DNA of 64,000 bases from the NCBI GenBank assembly GCA_965223705.1, contig OZ245015.1:1888001-1952000 (forward strand), written 5' to 3'. The DNA is from Myxococcota bacterium. Lineage in GTDB: Bacteria > Myxococcota_A > UBA9160 > UBA6930. The notes beneath the pieces are model-generated. The model saw nothing but the letters and a program-made list of their open reading frames with translations, was not told where the DNA came from and did no database searches. Within the stretch, counting starts at the first letter, position 1. The number at the start of each line of letters is the position of its first letter. This document shows, one piece after another, positions 8,229 to 21,613 of the stretch. A program made the translations under genes and the position numbers.

Positions 8229-8334
8229 GGTCCGTCGATCTCCGAGAGACGTGATATAGCAGACCGTTCGGTCCGTCGGGGTACCGCGCGGAACGCGCAT
8301 TCGAGATACTCTCGTCTAACCGGACAGAGGAGTG

Positions 8335-9474
8335 ATGGGTTTGGATAGCAACCGTGCTGTCGATCGCGCGTCGATTGGGGAGCGGCCGACGATCCGCGTG
8401 GGAATCGTGGGCGTCGGAAACTGCGCGAGTGCGCTGCTCCAGGGCATTGAATACTACCGGCGTCGCTCGGACGCTTCGGCCGAGGGCCTCATGCATTGGG
8501 AGATCGGAGGGTACCGGCCGGGAGACCTCGAGGTTTCGATCGCGTTCGATATCGACGTACGCAAGGTGGGCAAGGACGTCTCGGAAGCGATCTTCGAGGA
8601 CCCGAACTGTACGGCGGTCTTCTGCTCCGATCTGCCGAAGAGCGGCACCGTCGTTCGGATGGGACGACGACTCGACGGCGTTTCGCAGCACATGCTCGAC
8701 TACCGCGAGGACCGATCGTTCCAGCCTTCGGATGATCCCGAGCCGGATCACGGCGCGGTCGTCGGTGCACTGCAAAGCACGGGCACCCAGGTGCTGGTGA
8801 ACTACCTGCCCGTCGGTTCAGAGGAGGCGACGCGGTTCTACGCGGAGTGCGCGCTCGAAGCCGGCGTGGCTTTCGTGAACTGCATCCCGGTTTTTATCGC
8901 CAGCGATCCCGCGTTCTCCGAACGCTTTCGCGAAGCCGGGGTCCCGATCGTCGGAGACGACATCAAGGCGCAACTGGGGGCGACCATCACCCACCGAGCG
9001 TTGACCGATCTCTTCCGGCGGCGGGGCGTGTCCCTCGATCGGACGTACCAACTGAACACGGGCGGCAACACGGATTTCCTCAACATGCTGAATCGCGACC
9101 GGCTGGCGTCGAAGAAACGCTCGAAGACCGAGGCCGTGCAGTCCGTCGCAGCTTCGAGGATGGACGACACCGACATCCACGTCGGCCCGAGTGACTACGT
9201 GGCCTGGCAGAACGACAACAAGGTCTGCTTCATCCGTATGGAGGGGCGGCTCTTCGGAGACGTCCCGATGAACCTCGAACTTCGTCTCTCCGTCGAGGAT
9301 TCCCCGAACTCCGCGGGCGTGAGTATCGACGCGATTCGCTGCGCGAAGCTCGCCAGCGACCGCGGGATCGGCGGCGTGCTCGAAGGACCGTCCGCTTTCT
9401 TCATGAAGCATCCGCCGCGCCAGCTGCTCGATGACCAGGCCTACGACGAGACCGAAGCGTTCGTCCGCGGTTGA
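8335..9474 (+). CDS. ino1: myo-Inositol-1-phosphate synthase
   Basis: GVGNCAS, NYLPVGS, GDDIKAQLGAT, YQLNTGGNTDFLNM and DSPNSAG motifs. Confidence 0.95.
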   Translation: MGLDSNRAVDRASIGERPTIRVGIVGVGNCASALLQGIEYYRRRSDASAEGLMHWEIGGYRPGDLEVSIAFDIDVRKVGKDVSEAIFEDPNCTAVFCSDLPKSGTVVRMGRRLDGVSQHMLDYREDRSFQPSDDPEPDHGAVVGALQSTGTQVLVNYLPVGSEEATRFYAECALEAGVAFVNCIPVFIASDPAFSERFREAGVPIVGDDIKAQLGATITHRALTDLFRRRGVSLDRTYQLNTGGNTDFLNMLNRDRLASKKRSKTEAVQSVAASRMDDTDIHVGPSDYVAWQNDNKVCFIRMEGRLFGDVPMNLELRLSVEDSPNSAGVSIDAIRCAKLASDRGIGGVLEGPSAFFMKHPPRQLLDDQAYDETEAFVRG

Positions 9475-11719: not shown

Positions 11720-12940
11720 ATGACCGAACCGAACCACATCCTCGACGGGCTGCGGGTTCTCGACTTTACGCAAGTCTTGGCGGGGCCGACGACCACGCGA
11801 CTTATGGCGGAGCTCGGCGCCGAAGTGATCAAGCTCGAGCTGGCGCCGACCGGCGACTTCTCGCGATTCTTGCCGTTCCGCAATGAAGCGGGTCGCAGCG
11901 CTTATCACGTTCAGCAAAATCGCGGCAAGAAGAGCTTGTGCCTCGACGCGAAGAGCCCGGAAGGTCGCGAGATTATCTCGGAGCTGATCGGTCGAGCGGA
12001 CGTGGTGATCGAAAACTACGCGCCGGGCACCATCGGACGGCTCGGTTTTTCCTGGGAGAAAGTTCACGAGATCAATCCGAGTGCGGTGATGTGTTCCCTG
12101 TCGGCTTTCGGCCAATCGGGTCCGCTCGCTCATTTGCCCGGTTACGACTACATCGCCCAGGCGTACGCGGCAGTCACCCACATGATCGGAGATCCGGACG
12201 GTGCCCCTTCTTTCCCTGTGTTGGGGATCGGCGACGTCATGACCGGGGTACACGCGGCGGCGGCCATCGGTTTTGCATTGCTCTACCGGGAGCGGACGGG
12301 ACGGGGACAACACCTCGACATTTCGCTCCTCGACTCATACTTCCACTGTCACGAAGTCAACATCCAGATGTACAGCGCGACGCGCGGCGCCTTCGAACCG
12401 AACCGCTCGGGCTCTCACCACTATGCCGTCGCTCCCCTGGGCTTGTTCAAGGGCAAGGACCGCTACATGTTCATCATCGCGCTGGACCACCAATGGCCGT
12501 CGCTTTGTCGGGCGATGGGACGTCCCGAGTTGATCGATGACGAGCGGTACAGCGACAACGCGAAACGGACGGAACGGATCACCGAGGTCGCCAGCCTGAT
12601 CGAGGATTGGCTTCGAAGCACGCCCGACGATGAGACGGCGCTCAAGCAGCTCGAAGAAGCGCGCGTTCCCTGTGCCCCGGTCCTCTCGATCGCCGAGGCA
12701 GTCGCACACCCGCACCTCCGGGAGCGCAAGACGATTCGGACCATCGAAGACCGGATCCTGGGAGAGCTCGATATCCCCGGGATGCCGCTTCGCTTCTCCG
12801 AGTTTCCCGACGCGCTAGAACTCGAAGCGCCGCTACTCGGGGAGCACAACGCCGACGTTCTCGGAGCCGTCCTCGGCTACGACGCCGCCCGCGTCGAAGA
12901 CCTGACGAACCGAGGCATCCTCGTGCGAGGCGATACCTAG
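11720..12940 (+). CDS. CaiB/BaiF family (class III) CoA transferase
   Basis: LDGLRVLDFTQVLAGP, NRGKKSL, ENYAPG, GYDYIAQ and APLLGEHN motifs. Confidence 0.93.
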   Translation: MTEPNHILDGLRVLDFTQVLAGPTTTRLMAELGAEVIKLELAPTGDFSRFLPFRNEAGRSAYHVQQNRGKKSLCLDAKSPEGREIISELIGRADVVIENYAPGTIGRLGFSWEKVHEINPSAVMCSLSAFGQSGPLAHLPGYDYIAQAYAAVTHMIGDPDGAPSFPVLGIGDVMTGVHAAAAIGFALLYRERTGRGQHLDISLLDSYFHCHEVNIQMYSATRGAFEPNRSGSHHYAVAPLGLFKGKDRYMFIIALDHQWPSLCRAMGRPELIDDERYSDNAKRTERITEVASLIEDWLRSTPDDETALKQLEEARVPCAPVLSIAEAVAHPHLRERKTIRTIEDRILGELDIPGMPLRFSEFPDALELEAPLLGEHNADVLGAVLGYDAARVEDLTNRGILVRGDT

Positions 12941-12980
12941 GGAGCGTGTCACCAACGGCGCGGGGCCGCGGTTGGGCAGT

Positions 12981-13033
12981 GCGTCGCGAGGCCGTGGCAG
13001 GTGGGGGTACCGCGCGCAGTTCCGCAGCGCCGC
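12981..13033. repeat. Dispersed 53-bp intergenic repeat, copy 1
   Basis: 47/53 identical to 57331-57383, with an identical 24-bp core GGGGGTACCGCGCGCAGTTCCGCA. Confidence 0.85.
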
Positions 13034-13059
13034 CGACTGCCACGGCCCGACCGCGATCT

Positions 13060-13650
13060 CTACTGCTTGTGCGCTTCGACCTCGATCCAGATCGTGACGT
13101 CCGAGCCGATGCCGCCTTCTCCGTATTTCATGCCGAAGTCGGTGCGGTCGATCGTGAGCTTTCCGGAGAAGCCCGCGACCAGCACCCCGTTCATGGCGGG
13201 AATCGGGTGCGGGGCGTGCTTGTTGAACGTCACTTCCATCGTCACGGGCGCCGTCTTGCCGAGCAGGGTGAGGTCGCCCGCGATCTTCGCGGTCTTGTCG
13301 CCCGTCATTTCGACCGATGTCGACGAGAATTTCATCGTCGAGAACTCGGCCGCGTTGAAGAAGTCCGGTGATCGGAGATGCTCGTCGCGCTTCGCCTGGC
13401 CCGTATCGACGGAGTTCGTCTGAATCGTGACCGAGACCGTAGACGCCGCGAGGTTTTCCGGGTCGAGCGAGAGCTCCCCCTCAATTTCGTTGAAGCGTCC
13501 GGCCACCCTCGCGTAACCGAAATGATCGACGGCGAAGAATACGCCGGTGTGCGCGGGATCGAACTTGTAGGAAGCGGTCGCTGCGCTGGCGCCAGCGGAC
13601 ATTCCGCAAGCGACCAGAGCCGACATCAAGAACCTGAACAGGGGAGCCAT
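13060..13650 (-). CDS. YceI family lipid/polyprenyl-binding protein
   Basis: Signal peptide, DPAHT.V.F.V.H.G, RDEHLRSPDFF and IDRTDFGM motifs. GGAG RBS before ATG 13650. Confidence 0.92.
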   Translation of the reverse strand: MAPLFRFLMSALVACGMSAGASAATASYKFDPAHTGVFFAVDHFGYARVAGRFNEIEGELSLDPENLAASTVSVTIQTNSVDTGQAKRDEHLRSPDFFNAAEFSTMKFSSTSVEMTGDKTAKIAGDLTLLGKTAPVTMEVTFNKHAPHPIPAMNGVLVAGFSGKLTIDRTDFGMKYGEGGIGSDVTIWIEVEAHKQ

Positions 13651-13691
13651 AAACTCTTCTCCTTCGAACTTTCTTCGTAAATCACTTCTAG

Positions 13692-14498
13692 TTAGTAGCC
13701 ACTCGAGGTCTGCTGAGACCAGGAGACGAGGACGGCGAGAGCCGTCGGAATGAGACATAGACCCGCTAGGGCGAGCGCGCGCGTCGCCCGACCGCGTGCC
13801 GGTAGACCTTTCGGAAGCCACACGACCAGGAACGAGCACGCGAGCAGGAGAAGTGCCGCGTTCGAGGTTCGCGAGAACAGAGCCGCTTGGTGGGAAAGGA
13901 GAAGAAAGCTCCCGATGCCCACGACAACCGCCGCCGTGCCGTGATGCCACCGCTGGCGCGGCCAGTTCCAGAGCAGAAGACCGCCGGTGGCTGCCGCGAG
14001 GCCGCCCGATGCCTGCGCGATCGACGCGGAAGAGCCGAAAAAAGCCACGGGGATGAGACCCAAGGACGCGACGAGCAACATCACCAACACATCCTGCTGT
14101 TCTCGCCACAAACAGATCGCGAGGAGTGCCGAAGCGAGAGCCGTTGCGACGATCGCCTCGAGCGTCCCGTCGCCGCCGAGCCGCGGCCATGCGACATAGG
14201 CACACGAGACCACGGACCAAAGCACGGTGCCGGACACCCGCCACGGCAAAGCCGCCGGCAGTACGGCGAGGAGCACGCCTCCAGCCGCGATGAGATACGG
14301 GATCTTCTGTGTCGACGAAACGGGTGGGAACGCGGGAACGCCGATCGCGGCTACGTAGGCCGCGATGAAACCGATCCCGACCGCGAATCCCGTCCAGTCG
14401 TGGCGCAGAGCGGCCCAGGCCGGCGCGCTGATCAGCGCGAGGGCGAGTGGGATGATCGCCGACTGGACCGCCGGGTTTTGGAGGGAGAAGAATTCCAT
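13692..14498 (-). CDS. Multi-pass membrane protein of unknown function
   Basis: Roughly 9-10 hydrophobic segments. Starts 3 bp after the kinase stop. Confidence 0.7.
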   Translation of the reverse strand: MEFFSLQNPAVQSAIIPLALALISAPAWAALRHDWTGFAVGIGFIAAYVAAIGVPAFPPVSSTQKIPYLIAAGGVLLAVLPAALPWRVSGTVLWSVVSCAYVAWPRLGGDGTLEAIVATALASALLAICLWREQQDVLVMLLVASLGLIPVAFFGSSASIAQASGGLAAATGGLLLWNWPRQRWHHGTAAVVVGIGSFLLLSHQAALFSRTSNAALLLLACSFLVVWLPKGLPARGRATRALALAGLCLIPTALAVLVSWSQQTSSGY

Positions 14499-14501
14499 GA
14501 T

Positions 14502-16763
14502 TCAGTCCGTTTCGTCAGCCTCGCCGAGCACGCTCCGGAGCGCCGACGAGAGCGTCTCGATACGAAACGGTTTCTTGACGAAGGCGGTCTTTCCTTTGCC
14601 CGCGACGAGGTCATTTCCGAATCCCTCGGCGTGCCCGCTGAAGAATACGACGCCGATGTCCGGGCGGGCCTTGCGAACTTCTTCGAACACGTCTTCGGCG
14701 CGGCAATCGGGCATCGTCACGTCCAGGATCGCCGCGGAAAACGCGTCCGGGTCGCGTCCGAATGCCTCCAAGGCATCGGTGGCGGTGGTGTAGGTCGCGA
14801 CCTCGAACGCCTCCAGCCGCAGCGCGCGCTCGGTCATCGTGAGAACTTGCGATTCGTCATCGAGGATGAGGACACGCCGAACCGATCGGCCCAAACGGGC
14901 TTCTTCTCTGCCCTCGGTTCCCTCGCCACGAGGCACTTCCGCGAGCGGCAGCAACACGCGAAACCGCGTTCCTTGCCCCGGGCAGCTTTCCACTCGAAGC
15001 GCGCCGCGATGCCCGCGCACGATGCCCAAGACGGCGGCCAACCCGAGCCCGCGACCGGCGAACTTCGTCGAGTAGAACGGATCAAAAATTCTGGGCAGCG
15101 CTTCGTCGTCGATGCCGGCGCCGGTGTCCTCGACATCGAGGAAGGCGGATGAGCCGATCACGAGAGGGTCGCTGATGACATAGTCGTCGAGATCGCCAGC
15201 TTCGACGGAGACGACTCCCGTCGCGATGCGAACGCGCCCCCCCGCCGCCGGCAGTGACTCCGCACCGTTGGTCGCGAGATTCATCAAGACCTGGCGGATC
15301 TGAGTCACGTCGGCGCGCACCCAAGGGATCTCCTCGCCGGCGTCGAGGTCGAAGAGGGCGCGCTTGGACACGGCGCTCTGTACGAGGGGCACCGTATCGT
15401 TCACCAAAGCCGTCAGGTTGACCTTGCGGGGCACCAGTTCGTGCCCGCCGGAGTACGCCAACAGTGCGTTCACCAACTCCGCCGCTTGTTCGCCGGCCTT
15501 CGCGATCTCCGCGAGGGCGCTGCGATTTTCCTCGGGATCATCGCTTCGCATCGCGTACTGAGCGTTTCCGAGGATCCCCACGAGCAGATTGTTGAAGTCA
15601 TGGGCGATGCCCCCGGCCATGACGCCCAGGCTTTCGAGTTTTTGGGTCTGGAGCATCTGTTCGCTCAGCCGTCGTCGCTCCGCGTCGATCCGAAGGCGTT
15701 CGGCGACTTCGCTCTCGAGGGCGCGGTTCTTTGCCTGGATCTCCGCATAAGCGCGCGCGTTCTCGAGGGCCACCGCGATCCACGGCAGGATGTCATCGAG
15801 GTCGAGCGCGTTTTCGTCTGCAACCGCCGCATCCCAAAGCTTGAGCCGGCCGATACAGCGCCCGCCGACGCGAAGCATGTGCTCTGAAGCGGCGTCTCCC
15901 GCGGAAAGTGGATCCGCATAGAGGACCCGCAAAGAGCCGTCGCGTTCTTCGAGGCCGATGGAGATCCGCTGGAACGGGCCATTCGCTTTCAGCAGCGCCA
16001 CGATGGTGCGCGTCAGCGGTTCCAGCTCGATTTGATTCGTGAGCTCTCGCGCCCACACGTTTTGTCGCTCCAGGCGGCGCGCTTGCCGCGCGATGCGCGC
16101 GTGGGCTCGCGACAAGGCCTGGTACCCCTCGGCGACCCGTCGCTGTTGGTCTCCCAGCTCGCGCAGAGCGGCGGGTGCGTCGACCGTGCGGCGCAGCAGA
16201 CGCTTGAGAACCGAGGGCAGGGAACCCGATGGTGGCGGCGTGATCGTGTAGCGCGCGCGTCGCGGTTCGAGCTCCATGTCGACCTGTGCATCGGGAAGGT
16301 CGAGTTGTCTCGGGGCCGCACGCATCGCTCCCCGCATGGCGTAAAAGAACTCGGGGCAATCGCGATAGGGTTCCGGGATCCGCAGCGTCTCGCGGATGCG
16401 GCCGTCCGGCAGCGTCTCCAGGTGGTCCCGGACGATCGTGAACAGCGCCCGCCCCACTCGGAGGCTGCCCTTCGAATAGAGCGCGCGCGGGTGGACCACC
16501 AAGCGCGCGATTTTTCGGACGCTGCGGAGGCTCGGAGCGTCGCGGTGGTCCAAAGCGAGGTTCTCGAGGGCCTCGTGGGAGCCCAGGAGCTTGCCGGCAC
16601 GGCGCATCAGCTCCGCGAAGACGTCCCAATCGATGCGGCGTTCCGGGTCTCGCAGGAGGTCCGGGGTGACGGGGAGTTCACCACAGATATCGGCGATGTC
16701 GTGGCCTTTTGAACGCAGGCCACTCATCAGTAAGGCGCTGACGCGGCACGAGACCTCGTTCAT
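14502..16763 (-). CDS. Soluble hybrid sensor histidine kinase/response regulator with uncharacterised N-terminal domain
   Basis: H-box GGIAHDFNNLL, N-box QVLMNLATN, G-boxes DTGAGI and GRGLGL, a C-terminal REC domain (LILDDE, DVTMP, KPF) and a GAF-like segment ending ALENARAY. No obvious TM helix. Confidence 0.92.
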   Translation of the reverse strand: MNEVSCRVSALLMSGLRSKGHDIADICGELPVTPDLLRDPERRIDWDVFAELMRRAGKLLGSHEALENLALDHRDAPSLRSVRKIARLVVHPRALYSKGSLRVGRALFTIVRDHLETLPDGRIRETLRIPEPYRDCPEFFYAMRGAMRAAPRQLDLPDAQVDMELEPRRARYTITPPPSGSLPSVLKRLLRRTVDAPAALRELGDQQRRVAEGYQALSRAHARIARQARRLERQNVWARELTNQIELEPLTRTIVALLKANGPFQRISIGLEERDGSLRVLYADPLSAGDAASEHMLRVGGRCIGRLKLWDAAVADENALDLDDILPWIAVALENARAYAEIQAKNRALESEVAERLRIDAERRRLSEQMLQTQKLESLGVMAGGIAHDFNNLLVGILGNAQYAMRSDDPEENRSALAEIAKAGEQAAELVNALLAYSGGHELVPRKVNLTALVNDTVPLVQSAVSKRALFDLDAGEEIPWVRADVTQIRQVLMNLATNGAESLPAAGGRVRIATGVVSVEAGDLDDYVISDPLVIGSSAFLDVEDTGAGIDDEALPRIFDPFYSTKFAGRGLGLAAVLGIVRGHRGALRVESCPGQGTRFRVLLPLAEVPRGEGTEGREEARLGRSVRRVLILDDESQVLTMTERALRLEAFEVATYTTATDALEAFGRDPDAFSAAILDVTMPDCRAEDVFEEVRKARPDIGVVFFSGHAEGFGNDLVAGKGKTAFVKKPFRIETLSSALRSVLGEADETD

Positions 16764-16995
16764 GGCACTGATCTCCCCCCGAGGATCCTAACGCCTGCGG
16801 GGATCACCCGGTACCAAGGTACGTCCTTCCACCGGGTTTGGTTTCGAAAAATCTGCGTCTTTCCGCTGAGTTTGGACTCGGCGAATCACTCGAAGCACGT
16901 TCAGGCAAACCCCCAATGCGCCGAAAGGAACCGTAGCGAGACTAGAACAGCGATTTCATCACCTGATTCTGTCGATTTCAGACGTTGGAGATCAT

Positions 16996-18276
16996 TTGTC
17001 GGACCGTTTAGAGGAAGCGCACCGCATCATCGGCGCGGCGAGAGATCTCGGACTGGCGCATCAGGTGGCGGAAGACGACGCGTTCAGCGGCCGAACGTTC
17101 AGGCTCGGCGGTCGAGACCTCGTCCACTTCGGCTCCTGCAGCTACCTCGGGCTCGAGCTGGACCCACGGTTGATCGACGCGGGGATCGACGCGTTACGCC
17201 GCTACGGCGCGCACTTCTCTTCGTCGCGAAGCTACGTGTCGTGTCCGCTGTATCGCGGCTTGGAAGAGCGGCTGGAAGAGCTCTTCGGTCGGCCCGTGCT
17301 GGTCACGGCGACCACCACCCTGGGTCATTTGGCGGCCCTGCCGATTCTCTGTCAAACGGGTGACGTCGTGCTCGTCGATCAGCAGGCTCACTCGAGCCTG
17401 CAGCTCGCGGCGAATCAACTGCGTGCTCTCGGCGTGCGCGTGGAGACCGCGGCGCACAATCAAGTCGGCCGTCTACGCCGTCAGGTCGCTTCGCTGCGAG
17501 AGGGGGCGCGACACATCTGGTATGTCGGTGACGGTGTCTACTCGATGTACGGAGATCGGGCTCCCCTCGAGACGCTGCTCGAATTGACGCGGCAATACGA
17601 ACAATTCCACGTCTATCTCGACGACGCGCACGGCATCTCCTGGTCGGGACGACGCGGGGTCGGTTTCGTCCTCGACCGCGTCCCCGATGAGGAACGCTGG
17701 GTCGTCGCCGTAACCCTGGGGAAAGCTTTCGGTGCAGGAGGAGCGGCCCTCGTACTGCCGAAGCGGGACTGGCAGCGCCGTATCCAACACTGTGGAGGGA
17801 CCGTCGTGTTTACCGGTCCCGTGCCTCCGGCGATGCTCGGGGCGGCGATCGCGTCCGCCGACATTCACCTGTCGGGAGAAATCGAAACGCTGCAGGCACT
17901 GCTTCACGATCGCATCGAGCGCTGCAACCGGGCATTGATCGAAGCGGACGTCCCTTTGGTATCGCGGGAAAAGACGCCCGTTCGTTTTGTGGCGACGGGT
18001 GCTGCCGCTGTGACGCAGGCCGTGCTCGGTCGTGCCATCGCGCGCGGCTACTTCATCAACCCGGCCGTCTTCCCCGCGGTTTCTCGAAAGCGCTCCGGAC
18101 TCCGCTTCACCCTGACGCTGCACCAGCGAGACGACGACGTGGAACATCTCGTTGCGTGTCTGGCGGAAGAGCTTCCGAAGGCGCTCCGCGCCGCTGGGTT
18201 GTCGATGTCGGAGCTGCGTCGCCGTTTTCGATTACCGCCGCCGGCGTTCGCCGAAAGAGACTCCCGCGCCGCTTGA
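16996..18276 (+). CDS. Alpha-oxoamine synthase family (BioF/KBL/SPT/CqsA-like) PLP enzyme
   Basis: FGSCSYLGL, AHSSL, AHN, DGVYSMYGD, DDAHG, TLGKAFG (PLP Lys) and FPAV...LRFTLT motifs. TTG start with GGAG RBS. Confidence 0.88.
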   Translation: MSDRLEEAHRIIGAARDLGLAHQVAEDDAFSGRTFRLGGRDLVHFGSCSYLGLELDPRLIDAGIDALRRYGAHFSSSRSYVSCPLYRGLEERLEELFGRPVLVTATTTLGHLAALPILCQTGDVVLVDQQAHSSLQLAANQLRALGVRVETAAHNQVGRLRRQVASLREGARHIWYVGDGVYSMYGDRAPLETLLELTRQYEQFHVYLDDAHGISWSGRRGVGFVLDRVPDEERWVVAVTLGKAFGAGGAALVLPKRDWQRRIQHCGGTVVFTGPVPPAMLGAAIASADIHLSGEIETLQALLHDRIERCNRALIEADVPLVSREKTPVRFVATGAAAVTQAVLGRAIARGYFINPAVFPAVSRKRSGLRFTLTLHQRDDDVEHLVACLAEELPKALRAAGLSMSELRRRFRLPPPAFAERDSRAA

Positions 18277-18321
18277 CCGACGCCCGGGGTTGCGGTGTGA
18301 TCCACTTCGCGGGGTGGATCC

Positions 18322-19512
18322 ATGGCAACTTCCATCAGTCACTCGGCGCGAGCAGGGTCGCCGCTTCGCTTGGTCGCCGCGCGGCGTATCGACGAGCTGG
18401 ATACCGCGAGCTGGGACGCCGCTTTCGCTGGCCGAGGCCTTTGTGTGAGCTCTGCGCTGCGGGTTCTCGAACGGGCCTACGACGCGCCGGGTGCGCTTCC
18501 CGAACACGAGTGGCGGTTCTTCTACTTCGAAGTCTATTCGGGCGGCCGCTGCGTGCTGCGCACGTTCTTTACGAGCGCGCTGTGCAAGGAAGACATGCTC
18601 GCGCCGGCGCCGGTCTCGCGGCTCGCGGAAGAAAAGCGCGCCGACGACCCCGATTTCCTCGTCTCGCGCCTGTTCCTCATGGGAACGCTGCTCGGGGAAT
18701 GCCGACAGATGTGGTGGGACGAAGACGCCGCGTGGCGCGACGCTCTCGATCTGGTGCTCGACGCGGCGGCACAAGAAGCGGAGCGCGAGGGGGCAGCGAC
18801 CCTGGTGCTCGGTCAGTTCGCCCGCGAGGCCGAGTCGCTCGCCGAGCCCCTGATCGCCGCCGGTTTCCACCCGAGTCCGTTTCCGCGGGCCTATGACCTA
18901 CGCGGATTTTCAGTCCCGGAGACGTGGCTCGCGGGCTTGTCGCCGAAGTCGCGCCGGCACGTTCGGACCGAGGTTCTTCCCTACACCGAACAGTTCGTTG
19001 CGGAGGCGTCGCCGGCAAGTGGCGCAAGCGCCGCCGAACTCCGCTGCGCCTACGAGCTTCACCTGCGGCTCAAAGCGCGCTCGTTCGAAGTGAATGATTT
19101 CCCGCTGCCCGCATCGCTCTGGCGCGAAGCGGCCGCCCCCGGCACCGGTTTCGACTTGCTGCGTCTGCGGCGGCCCGGTGGGGAACTGCTCGCGGCGGGG
19201 TTGGGATTCGCCGAGAGCGGGGCGTACACGCCGGTGGTTCTCGGATTGGCGGCCGGGCCGCAGCGAATACCGGGTCTCTACCGACGCGCGCTCCTACAGG
19301 CGATCGAACGCGCTCGGGAGCTCCACTGTGAGGTGGTTCGTTTCGGCCCCGGGGCCGATCTCGAAAAGAGGAGAATGGGCGCCACACCCGTTCCCCTGCG
19401 CTTGTTCGTCCGCTTCCTGCAGCCCGAACGTCTCAAAGCCCTGGCGGAGCTCGTGGCCGAAACCGAGGCGCGCCGCGCGCCTTCGCTTGACAGCGCCGAC
19501 GCTCTCGCCTGA
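18322..19512 (+). CDS. GNAT/FemAB-like acyltransferase
   Basis: WLAGLSPKSRRHVR helix, LYRRALLQAIERA and the C-terminal FGPGADLEKRRMGA, all typical of Acetyltransf_6/FemAB-like GNATs. Confidence 0.75.
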   Translation: MATSISHSARAGSPLRLVAARRIDELDTASWDAAFAGRGLCVSSALRVLERAYDAPGALPEHEWRFFYFEVYSGGRCVLRTFFTSALCKEDMLAPAPVSRLAEEKRADDPDFLVSRLFLMGTLLGECRQMWWDEDAAWRDALDLVLDAAAQEAEREGAATLVLGQFAREAESLAEPLIAAGFHPSPFPRAYDLRGFSVPETWLAGLSPKSRRHVRTEVLPYTEQFVAEASPASGASAAELRCAYELHLRLKARSFEVNDFPLPASLWREAAAPGTGFDLLRLRRPGGELLAAGLGFAESGAYTPVVLGLAAGPQRIPGLYRRALLQAIERARELHCEVVRFGPGADLEKRRMGATPVPLRLFVRFLQPERLKALAELVAETEARRAPSLDSADALA

Positions 19513-19544
19513 AGCTTCCTTCTGACAACCCTCAAGGAGACTCT

Positions 19545-20441
19545 ATGTCGCAAGCACAGCTAGATCAGGTGATCGAGGACGTCGTCGCCACGTTCTCGTC
19601 ATGGGGTCCGGACACCACCCTCGACGAAATGCGCGCGGGTTGGGACGGAATTTTTGCCGATGTCGTTCCCTCGGTGGGCGCGAGCTCCGAAGCGGTCGAC
19701 GCCGGTGGCGTCAAAGCCGAATGGATCACCGCGCCGGGCGCCGCACCGGACCGGGTGATCCTCTACCTGCACGGCGGCGGCTACGTCCTCGGATCGATCG
19801 ACTCCCACCGCGACCTTTGCGAACGCTACTCCCGAGCGGCGAGCGCGCGCGTCCTGGCCCTCGACTATCGGCTCGCTCCAGAGAACCCGTTCCCGGCCGC
19901 AGTGGACGATGCGACGGCGGCGTACCGCTGGCTCCTCGACCAGGGGATCGCGCCCGCGCATATCGCGATCGCCGGCGACTCGGCGGGCGGCGGCTTGACC
20001 TTTGCCACGCTCGTCGCACTGCGCGACGCCGGTACTCCGTTGCCCGCTTGTGCGACGCCCATCTCACCGTGGGTCGACCTCGAGGCCACGGGTGACAGCA
20101 TGGCGCTTCGCGCCGACGTCGATCCGATGGTCCAGAAGGAGATGATCCAGCAGATGGGTCACACCTACACGGCGGGCGGCGACCTGCGCAACCCGTTGGC
20201 GGCGCCCCTCCACGCGGATCTCAGCGGTCTGCCGCCGTTGCTGATCCATGTCGGATCCCGCGAGACGCTCCACGATGACGCGGCTCGCATGGCCGAGAAG
20301 GCGAGGGCCGCCGGCGTCGATGTCGAGCTCGACGTGTGGGACGGGCAAATCCACGTGTGGCACGTCTTCGCAAGTCGGCTCGACGAAGGCGAAGAAGCGA
20401 TTCAGCAGCTCGGCGCTTTCGTGCGCAAGCACACGACGTAA
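19545..20441 (+). CDS. HSL-family alpha/beta hydrolase (esterase)
   Basis: HGGGY, DYRLAPE.PFPA, GDSAGG and HVW motifs. AAGGAG RBS. Confidence 0.93.
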   Translation: MSQAQLDQVIEDVVATFSSWGPDTTLDEMRAGWDGIFADVVPSVGASSEAVDAGGVKAEWITAPGAAPDRVILYLHGGGYVLGSIDSHRDLCERYSRAASARVLALDYRLAPENPFPAAVDDATAAYRWLLDQGIAPAHIAIAGDSAGGGLTFATLVALRDAGTPLPACATPISPWVDLEATGDSMALRADVDPMVQKEMIQQMGHTYTAGGDLRNPLAAPLHADLSGLPPLLIHVGSRETLHDDAARMAEKARAAGVDVELDVWDGQIHVWHVFASRLDEGEEAIQQLGAFVRKHTT

Positions 20442-20474
20442 GCGCCAACCGTTTCGCGCAAGCACACGACGTAA
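20423..20474. repeat. 19-bp direct repeat duplicating the esterase 3' end
   Basis: GCGCAAGCACACGACGTAA at 20423-20441 and 20456-20474. Confidence 0.85.
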
Positions 20475-20488
20475 CCGTCGTCCGGTTT

Positions 20489-20515
20489 CGCGCGGGGCGC
20501 CCGTCGCCCCGCGCG
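20489..20515. terminator. Strong hairpin between convergent genes
   Basis: Perfect 11-bp stem CGCGCGGGGCG/CGCCCCGCGCG with a 5-nt loop. No U-tract. Confidence 0.5.
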
Positions 20516-21613
20516 CTACAGCTCCCGCAACCCCGAGCCCGGCTTTACCAACACCTTGGCGTGTCGCTCGGGATTCCCCAGCGCGGAAAACGCTTCGGCG
20601 ACGTGCTCGAGGTCGACCCGCCCCGTGATCAGGGGAGCGACGTCGATCTCGCCCTCCGCGATATGTCGCAGGGTCCTTTCGAATTCTTCCGCGCTGTAGC
20701 CGAGTACGTACTGCAGGTTGAGCTCCTTGTTGATCGCGTACATCGGCTCGAAGTGATCGCGCTCCATACAGACGCCCGCGACCACAATCCGCGCGCCCGA
20801 GGGCGCCTGCGTGACGATCTCGTCGAGGACGCCCGGAACGCCGACGCATTCGAAGATGACGGCGGGACGCAGGAGCGGTCCGGTGACCCACGGCGGCGGT
20901 GCCGGCGCATCCGCGGGGTCGGGCCAGGGCGCCCGGGCCGCCCATGCTTCGTACGGAGAATTCGCGCGCGGGTCGACGACTTCGTCGGCACCCATGGCAA
21001 TCGCCAATTCGCGCCGCCTCGGCGAGTAGTCCGCGGCGACGATCGGACCCGCGCCGGCCAGCTTCAGTGCCGCGACGACGGAGAGGCCCACGGGTCCACA
21101 GCCCACGACGAGCGGGACGTCGTGCCGTTCGAGGCGGGCCTTCTCCACGGCGTGCACGCCGACCGCCAGAGGCTCGGTGAGCGCGGCGTGTTCTGGTGCC
21201 AACCCGTTCGGCACCGGAAGTAGGAGCGATTCCATGAGCCGCATCGACTCACCGTAGCCGCCGGGGTGGTCGTTCGAGTAGCCGACGGTCGAGAGCGCGC
21301 TCGAGCGGAGCAGCAGAGGCATGGAACACACCGCGCTTCCGGTCTTGATCCGGCGCTGGGTGTCGGGGCCGTAGTCGAGCACCTCCGCGCAAAACTCGTG
21401 TCCCATGACGACGCCGCGGTCGAGGTCCATGTCGAATACTCCCCCACAACGCCGCCCGACTTCGACGAGTTTCTCGGTGTGCACCAGAGCGTGGAGGTCC
21501 GAGCCGCAGATGCCACACGCCAATGTCTTGACCAAGACCTCGCCAGGTCCCGGGTCGGGTGTCGCGATGTCTCGAACTTCGAGTTCATGGTTTTGCATAA
21601 CCACTGCGCGCAT
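20516..21613 (-). CDS. Zinc-binding (MDR) dehydrogenase
   Basis: CGICGSDLH, GHE, EPLAVG.H and GCGPVG motifs. Confidence 0.92.
   Translation of the reverse strand: MRAVVMQNHELEVRDIATPDPGPGEVLVKTLACGICGSDLHALVHTEKLVEVGRRCGGVFDMDLDRGVVMGHEFCAEVLDYGPDTQRRIKTGSAVCSMPLLLRSSALSTVGYSNDHPGGYGESMRLMESLLLPVPNGLAPEHAALTEPLAVGVHAVEKARLERHDVPLVVGCGPVGLSVVAALKLAGAGPIVAADYSPRRRELAIAMGADEVVDPRANSPYEAWAARAPWPDPADAPAPPPWVTGPLLRPAVIFECVGVPGVLDEIVTQAPSGARIVVAGVCMERDHFEPMYAINKELNLQYVLGYSAEEFERTLRHIAEGEIDVAPLITGRVDLEHVAEAFSALGNPERHAKVLVKPGSGLREL

Follow-up and report, generated by a model that had tools for sequence, protein, structure and literature searches.

Pairs in which an alpha-oxoamine synthase goes with a dedicated receptor have been described in bacteria. 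In Vibrio (CqsA/CqsS) and Legionella (LqsA/LqsS) such pairs serve alpha-hydroxyketone signalling, the synthase being encoded beside its sensor kinase (PMC3376566, available in part), while in Bacteroides fragilis the oxoamine synthase LgsGA3, encoded divergently from the cytoplasmic receptor TetRGA3, releases a small molecule, and a ketosynthase-like enzyme lies beside related TetR genes (bioRxiv 10.1101/2025.08.20.671311, available in part). The locus considered here lies in the window, that is, the whole 64,000-nucleotide stretch of DNA analysed (C1:1888001-1952000 of a 4.56-Mb Myxococcota genome, 95% complete), and its core is a module of three genes, encoding a hybrid histidine kinase, a pyridoxal phosphate (PLP) enzyme and a GNAT (14502-19512). 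We are inclined to believe, with moderate confidence, that this module makes a small acyl amino-ketone and senses its product in the cytoplasm by means of a heme-less domain of the H-NOX fold; by analogy, it is best read as a CqsA/CqsS-like, independently evolved synthase-receptor pair.

Like CqsA/CqsS and LqsA/LqsS, the module has an alpha-oxoamine synthase encoded beside its presumably cognate sensor histidine kinase. However, its enzyme belongs to another clade and carries or, as in the window, precedes a FemX-like domain, and the trans-membrane sensor of the known systems is replaced by a soluble receptor with a predicted H-NOX-fold input. With LgsGA3 the module shares the divergent arrangement of synthase and cytoplasmic receptor, and the ketosynthase-like neighbour there parallels the second synthase discussed below, but that receptor is of the TetR type and the available part of the preprint, by whose description we set the two apart, mentions no GNAT partner. 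As the enzyme clade, the capping domain and the receptor all differ, the module belongs to neither the CqsA/LqsA nor the LgsGA3/TetR system. A further oxoamine synthase with an additional domain is Mycobacterium tuberculosis BioF2 (Rv0032), whose extra domain we take to be a GNAT. Compared by description, BioF2 differs in the N-terminal position of this domain and in being closest to serine palmitoyltransferase (SPT); it does not rescue a loss of bioF, and no function is known for it, according to the available part of PMC12910592. Within the literature accessible to us, from which subscription papers were mostly missing, we found no description of the present fusion with this receptor, nor of an enzyme coupling PLP condensation to tRNA-dependent capping, which the module predicts.

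Linkage and co-divergence of the synthase and the sensor domain

The preliminary description of this locus had suggested looking at whether homologues of the synthase adjoin regulators with the same N-terminal domain, and they do so often. At all eight synthase loci found in 5 of 40 relatives, the sensor domain was encoded next door, and from these loci, which thereby became training rows, profiles were built for a survey of 401 genomes of the phylum. The survey returned 41 synthase loci, spread over 37 genomes (as 43 rows, since two of the loci appear twice), and at least 147 places with the sensor domain in 105 genomes, the latter figure being a lower bound since eight candidates were scored per genome. 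The sensor domain was the direct neighbour at 22 of the 41 synthase loci, namely six training loci, among them that of the window, and 16 of the remaining 35; G295, truncated by a contig end, was scored as lacking it. For the window's class the figure was 19 of 21. With 147 matches in 401 genomes, we estimate that chance would give well under one adjacency, relatives not being independent. The pairing outlasts rearrangement, being divergent in 20 cases, tandem with the sensor first in 13 and tandem with the sensor after the synthase in five, and the output attached to the sensor domain varies.

The partners also co-diverge. Over 34 pairs (an identical one having been left out), distances between synthases correlate with those between sensors, with r=0.77, the best of 2000 permutations reaching 0.22, and in 29 of the 34 the closest sensor is the partner of one of the three closest synthases. 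A better control than this overall correlation is provided by the five genomes that carry two pairs, in all of which the partners sort by locus and not by genome: the two synthases are 40-51% identical and the two sensors 23-32%, each being closer to the partner-matched locus elsewhere. In G290 and G307 the synthase and the sensor are unlinked, and still fall into matching clades. Prediction of a complex of the synthase, the GNAT and the sensor domain gave a score of 0.00, which we counted neither way.

The mechanism that we suppose is as follows. The PLP enzyme would condense an amino-acid substrate with an acyl-CoA or an acyl carrier protein (ACP)-bound acyl group and release an alpha-aminoketone, as is usual in its family; the FemX-like domain would then attach to the amine an amino acid taken from a charged tRNA, as an optional capping step that has possibly become weaker in this genome. 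The product would bind in the pocket occupied by heme in H-NOX proteins and by a small ligand in VirS, and the binding would alter autophosphorylation of the kinase at His388 and transfer to Asp681. The core of the preliminary description, synthesis of an aminoketone and its sensing, is supported on genomic grounds (the clade of the enzyme, which is outside BioF, KBL and SPT, the linkage and the co-divergence), while the roles it gave to the YceI protein and the esterase are not. Should the proposal hold, bacterial chemical signalling would gain one more synthase-receptor pair of independent origin, from a lineage that is mostly uncultured; an unnamed sensor family of more than 1000 clusters would be assigned a ligand class, and the H-NOX fold would be seen to serve in signal reception with no heme. 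The genomes with two pairs would be built-in specificity controls.

A number of observations weigh against this proposal. Outside the window's class the sensor adjoins only three of 20 synthase loci, and nine of these 20 loci carry fatty acyl-AMP ligase or ACP genes, none of them together with the sensor, which fits lipid synthesis. Conversely, 125 of the 147 sensor-domain matches are not beside this synthase, and 37 of the 46 solo loci, that is, loci with the sensor domain and no oxoamine synthase (6 plus 40 picked by score and contig size), show no recognised synthase. Locus L001, in whose phylum the synthase was found in 4 of 301 genomes, has no sensor nearby. Across the loci examined, neither a transporter or exporter nor a regulator acting downstream is conserved. 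Kinship inflates the correlation between synthases and sensors, and co-divergence equally fits any long-linked pair of a regulator and its target. As to the window itself, its sensor has Arg where Trp102 is usual, and its GNAT keeps only 31 of 46 conserved columns, against a median of 44 among the 77 others, and is tied for the lowest of the 78.

In metagenomes, from which the best 80 of 487 loci were taken, many of them on short contigs, the sensor domain was found at 11 of the 23 loci with a G+C content of at least 60% and at two of the 57 loci of lower G+C content. Another soluble kinase, with a HAMP-like repeat, is present at 16 of these 57 (its profile was seeded from seven of its own 16 loci). 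The low-G+C fusions near such a kinase, in which the repeat is mostly followed by PAS, are at L079, L084, L090, L094, L097, L101, L104 and L105, and further ones at L113, L115, L120, L124, L133, L135, L138 and L139; at L079 two fusions face each other around two HAMP-like kinases. Members consisting of the synthase only (L085:7971-9722, L128:2186-4012, L129:4031-5815) have in their vicinity kinases whose N-terminal regions are hydrophobic (with MASE7 in L129), a layout closer to CqsS. A scan of genome contigs with the single enzyme returned one locus.

The enzyme, the transferase and the putative receptor

The PLP enzyme of the window is a fold-type I protein with the Schiff-base lysine, the stacking histidine and the DxAH motif; its catalytic residues are intact (Lys243, His132 and Asp209-His212 are invariant in 60 aligned sequences), and it keeps 82 of 87 family-conserved columns. 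Every named oxoamine-synthase model of NCBIfam scores it far under cut-off: BioF (TIGR00858) 163 bits against 426, KBL 95-105 against 460-493, SPT 91-130 against 500-670, ALAS 93 against 339 and CqsA/LqsA (NF005526) 70 against 428. A bona fide bioF gene (479 bits) is located elsewhere in the genome. The best model is PRK07505 (NF005697), with 265 bits against a cut-off of 342 (274 bits for the homologue P0001). In a tree of 31 rows, whose references were classified by NCBIfam or by E. coli annotation, 12 family members form a clade of their own with support of 100/100, sister to PRK07505 and separate from BioF, KBL, SPT, ALAS and CqsA, as also in the 174-row version; four CqsA members above the NF005526 cut-off group in a different clade. 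The phylogeny proposed in the preliminary description thus places the enzyme with none of BioF, KBL and SPT. Of the likeness to CqsA/LqsA noted there, the position of a synthase beside a sensor kinase holds; the enzyme is not an orthologue of CqsA/LqsA. The closest solved structure, PDB 8XHA (E 1e-42), is Alb29, which condenses L-glutamate with acyl-CoAs (PMC11906848, available in part). The nearest likeness is thus to Alb29 and PRK07505, although the window enzyme is under the cut-off of the latter and belongs to its sister clade.

Fatty acyl-AMP ligase and/or ACP genes are adjacent to or fused with the synthase at nine of the 41 loci of the phylum, which points to an acyl-thioester substrate; in the window's genome no close homologue of the ligase was found at E 1e-30. 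Two loci (L040:3895-7044, L041:2930-6079) encode a triple fusion of ACP, AMP-ligase and oxoamine synthase with no GNAT. At L029:4389-11861 and L037:4393-11803 the fusion is followed by an acyl-AMP ligase, accompanied at L029 by an acyl-CoA dehydrogenase and ACP, and is divergent from a histidine kinase with a cyclic-nucleotide-binding domain.

As for the GNAT, it shares one reading frame with the PLP enzyme, and two TGA codons (18274, 18298) stand between them. The two open reading frames (ORFs) align end to end with single-polypeptide homologues, which are fusions of about 810 residues combining the PLP domain with a GNAT (406 matches among longer proteins; 42-56% identical to the window enzyme among the 120 matches listed), so that, judging by sequence, the window holds a split version of a widespread fusion. 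The alternatives of sequencing error and recoding are ruled out by the two stops, by the agreement of four short-read assemblies of one sample (possibly the window's own source sample), in which both TGA codons are matched, and by the fact that TGA also terminates neighbouring genes. In G139, G117 and G141 the frame is open without a break; in G144 it is broken within the synthase. A short inverted repeat, seen by eye at 18299-18321 just upstream of the GNAT start, overlaps the second TGA.

The model of the GNAT has a mean confidence (pLDDT) of 95.8. Its top four structural matches, FemX, Sbb17, FemA and FemXWv, have Z 20-23, with FemX at 22.9 (root-mean-square deviation, rmsd, 4.6; 301 residues aligned) and Sbb17 at 22.2 (2.9; 272 aligned). 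Next come MprF and the aminoacyl-phosphatidylglycerol synthases (Z 17-18) and CoA-dependent tandem GNATs (Z 16-17.5). As FemX-type folds are the top matches, the donor is likely to be an aminoacyl-tRNA rather than an acyl-CoA, if the model is a guide. The best structural likeness is thus to FemX/FemA and the aminoacyl-tRNA-dependent peptide synthases Sba18 and Sbb17, although the GNAT is only 12-17% identical to these proteins and the acyl-CoA-dependent tandem GNATs match as well. The FemAB-like label of the preliminary description agrees with this fold, and a tRNA-dependent transferase appears likelier than a plain acetyltransferase. PF04339 matches 22 of 78 GNAT family members, and no PDB sequence came up in a profile search with the GNAT.

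These data allow another explanation, which we consider rather doubtful: the fusion may make a structural or storage aminolipid, such as an aminoacylated long-chain aminoketone, with the sensor acting as an intracellular feedback monitor and no cell-cell signal being involved. The ligase and ACP genes at nine loci, the match of the GNAT fold to MprF and its kin, the cytoplasmic location of the sensor and the lack of a conserved exporter in the loci examined all agree with it. On the other hand, the family turns up unevenly (in 37 of 401 genomes), in some genomes as two pairs that have diverged, which is not the pattern of a housekeeping lipid enzyme, and its synthase pairs with several unrelated receptor types.

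Slightly less credible, and unlikely in our opinion, though compatible with the other readings, is that the window copy is decaying, its fusion broken and the transferase half losing function. The window has the sole split form among the family rows of the 174-row tree, with two in-frame stops; the 15 changed columns of its GNAT include Arg151-Asp152, and the cytochrome partner of some family loci (see below) was not found in the genome. However, the GNAT has no internal stop, its third-position G+C fraction (0.77) is like that of its neighbours and nine invariant columns are kept, while the synthase half is normal, and loci with a synthase only beside the sensor do exist (L057, L058). Moreover, P0272, a 60%-identical stand-alone GNAT fragment, has its own start and the same substitutions, and for this reason the window GNAT looks, by sequence comparison, like a diverged lineage variant. 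At L207:3557-4621, L226:2595-3575 and L220:9024-10004, a different stand-alone GNAT (PF13480) and the sensor kinase are encoded divergently within a block of three genes that is conserved.

The kinase consists of the input domain (residues 1-180), a GAF-like segment (about 225-350; an Atlas lead with a score of 0.92), HisKA with His388, HATPase and a receiver with Asp681. It has no hydrophobic segment (the maximum 19-residue mean is 1.15), in line with the cytoplasmic kinase, unlike CqsS and LqsS, that had been proposed. The clusters of the input-domain family given in Table 1 were found with residues 1-345. For 75 of the 150 homologues listed, a kinase core is present in 54, a receiver in 30, PAS in 13, a LuxR-type helix-turn-helix (HTH) domain in four and GGDEF-EAL in one; receiver-only outputs also occur beside the sensor domain. 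An Atlas search with the sensor domain gave only leads below 0.8, and a word-index search with the sensor region gave one protein only. P0136 and P0262 contain the domain two or three times in tandem. In P0262, PAS domains and an HTH-like tail form the C-terminal end; this protein is possibly the DUF835-matching member among the 75 homologues.

The model of the first 185 residues (pLDDT 89.8) matches H-NOX (4u99; Z 13.8, rmsd 3.5, 172 aligned) and, practically tied, the N-terminal domain of VirS (Z 13.6, rmsd 3.4, 177 aligned), hence the predicted H-NOX/VirS-like fold. The predicted fold is the same as that of H-NOX and of the AraC-type N-terminal ligand domain of VirS/CdpR (PF12625), which weakly matches 4 of the 75 homologues and two locus neighbours, but the present domain is fused to kinases and other outputs and not to an AraC DNA-binding domain. 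The proximal histidine and YxSxR are the heme-ligating features of H-NOX. Among 230 sequences the best histidine column, at position 141, reaches 30%, and YxSxR occurs in four; H-NOX-type heme binding therefore seems unlikely, and sensing through heme is unsupported.

This bears on the possibility that the kinase senses an outside cue (redox state, a gas or an unrelated lipid) and only controls expression of the neighbouring enzyme, whose product is no ligand. Gas sensors are the best-known proteins with the H-NOX fold, the majority of the domain's copies have no adjacent synthase, and an N-terminally anchored di-heme cytochrome c is encoded directly after the fusion at 20 of 124 family loci (e.g., L051:10081-10983), 17 of them sensor-linked. 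Yet the absence of the heme-ligating features, the failure to find the cytochrome in the window's genome and the clustering of linked sensors by the type of the adjoining synthase make this explanation improbable. SphR is presumably a protein with the same N-terminal domain. A possible parallel to such cytochromes is SphB in the sphingosine regulon of Pseudomonas, described as a similar cbb3-type cytochrome c (PMC5150637, available in part, where that domain of SphR is not mentioned). Finally, it is very improbable that the synthase is a trigger enzyme, contacting the sensor domain directly and signalling the state of its substrate with no diffusible product: co-divergence is typical of binding partners too, and both proteins are cytoplasmic, but the domain also pairs with unrelated KAS-III and thiamine diphosphate (ThDP) enzymes and the synthase with unrelated sensors, which a small molecule explains more easily.

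A second synthase beside the same domain

Among the 46 solo loci there was no oxoamine synthase, no GNAT of its kind and no acyl-AMP ligase; nine, however, have a ThDP enzyme and/or KAS-III in the same gene run as the sensor. Such runs with a kinase of the same domain are at L208:2031-7909, L219:4658-10601, L225:4228-12001 (including P450s), L233:2352-8068, L215, L218, L227 and L238, and a second receiver-kinase often follows them. In the reverse search this KAS-III was found at E <1e-100 in nine genomes, five of them training rows; three of the four non-training members of the subclade are directly beside the sensor domain, while ten weaker matches are not. Sensors linked to KAS-III group separately from those linked to the oxoamine synthase. 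These runs are a candidate second signal system. ThDP enzymes like NzsH partner FabH-like enzymes. NzsH and its like make acyloins, that is, alpha-hydroxyketones (PMC9822442, available in part).

Nothing hints more strongly at a self-made ligand of the domain than its position beside two ketone-forming chemistries that are unrelated to each other. About a quarter of the sampled genomes carry the domain, mostly with no adjacent synthase. It may be tentatively suggested, as a possibility that we ourselves hold to be on the doubtful side, that the heme-less H-NOX domain is a phylum-wide general receptor for self-made ketone signals fed by PLP oxoamine synthases with tRNA-dependent capping and by ThDP/KAS-III acyloin-type synthases, the solo receptors picking up the signals of neighbours; if so, it would amount to a widespread class of quorum sensing, so far undescribed, with an aminoacylated aminoketone as a signal.

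Limits of the module and neighbouring genes

The features of the locus are given in Table 1. ORF coordinates confirm the layout reported at the outset, namely six ORFs in two divergent tight runs with gaps of 41, 3, 232, 45 and 32 bp. The nucleotide composition of the window is in no way unusual, and a search of the region 12900-20600 gave no sigma-70 site and terminator numbers at the chance level.

Table 1. Coordinates of the module and of the adjoining features in the window
Feature	Position	Strand	Remarks
YceI-family protein	13060-13650	-	Pfam YceI; flanking gene, outside conserved module
Membrane protein	13692-14498	-	8 hydrophobic segments, no Pfam/NCBIfam family; flanking gene
Soluble hybrid histidine kinase, 753 aa	14502-16763	-	Pfam HisKA/HATPase/REC; module member
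Kinase input domain	16224-16763	-	Unnamed family, 1053 clusters; predicted H-NOX / AraC-N (VirS) fold
Intergenic region between divergent kinase and synthase, 232 bp	16764-16995	.	No sigma-70-type site found
Alpha-oxoamine synthase (PLP), 426 aa	16996-18276	+	Pfam Aminotran_1_2 (PF00155); module member
In-frame spacer, 45 bp	18277-18321	+	Second TGA at 18298; counterpart of linker in fused homologues
Tandem GNAT, 396 aa	18322-19512	+	Weak Pfam Acetyltransf_6; FemX-like model; module member
Hormone-sensitive-lipase-type esterase	19545-20441	+	Pfam Abhydrolase_3; flanking gene, outside conserved module
Zn-dehydrogenase	20516-21613		108 bits for Tdh vs cut-off 380

Two congeners, G001 and G002, keep the order of CoA-transferase, YceI, membrane protein and divergent esterase, with the membrane protein directly adjoining the esterase; nothing of the module (kinase, PLP enzyme, GNAT) lies between the two. 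This synteny where the module is missing puts the YceI protein, the membrane protein and the esterase outside the module, and together with the lack of matches to these proteins and to the Zn-dehydrogenase in any of the 124 family loci it bears out the earlier suspicion that the outer genes are incidental neighbours; it leaves no ground for YceI as a carrier or for the esterase as a turnover enzyme. The Zn-dehydrogenase, considered as a Tdh-like converter, is ruled out by its score and by the same absence, in agreement with the statement that no tdh lies nearby. Since both congener genomes, with 2.1-2.3 Mb at 75-87% completeness, are small and the G001 locus also lacks the nearby dehydrogenase and an acyl-CoA dehydrogenase, gain of the module in the window's genome and its loss in the congeners are both possible.

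Among the 40 relatives the eight-helix membrane protein was found only in the two congeners, and in all three genomes of the genus (the window, L236 and L237) it is paired with YceI. An ORF at 8332-9474 of the window, recognised by eye as resembling inositol-3-phosphate synthase, is syntenic in L236.

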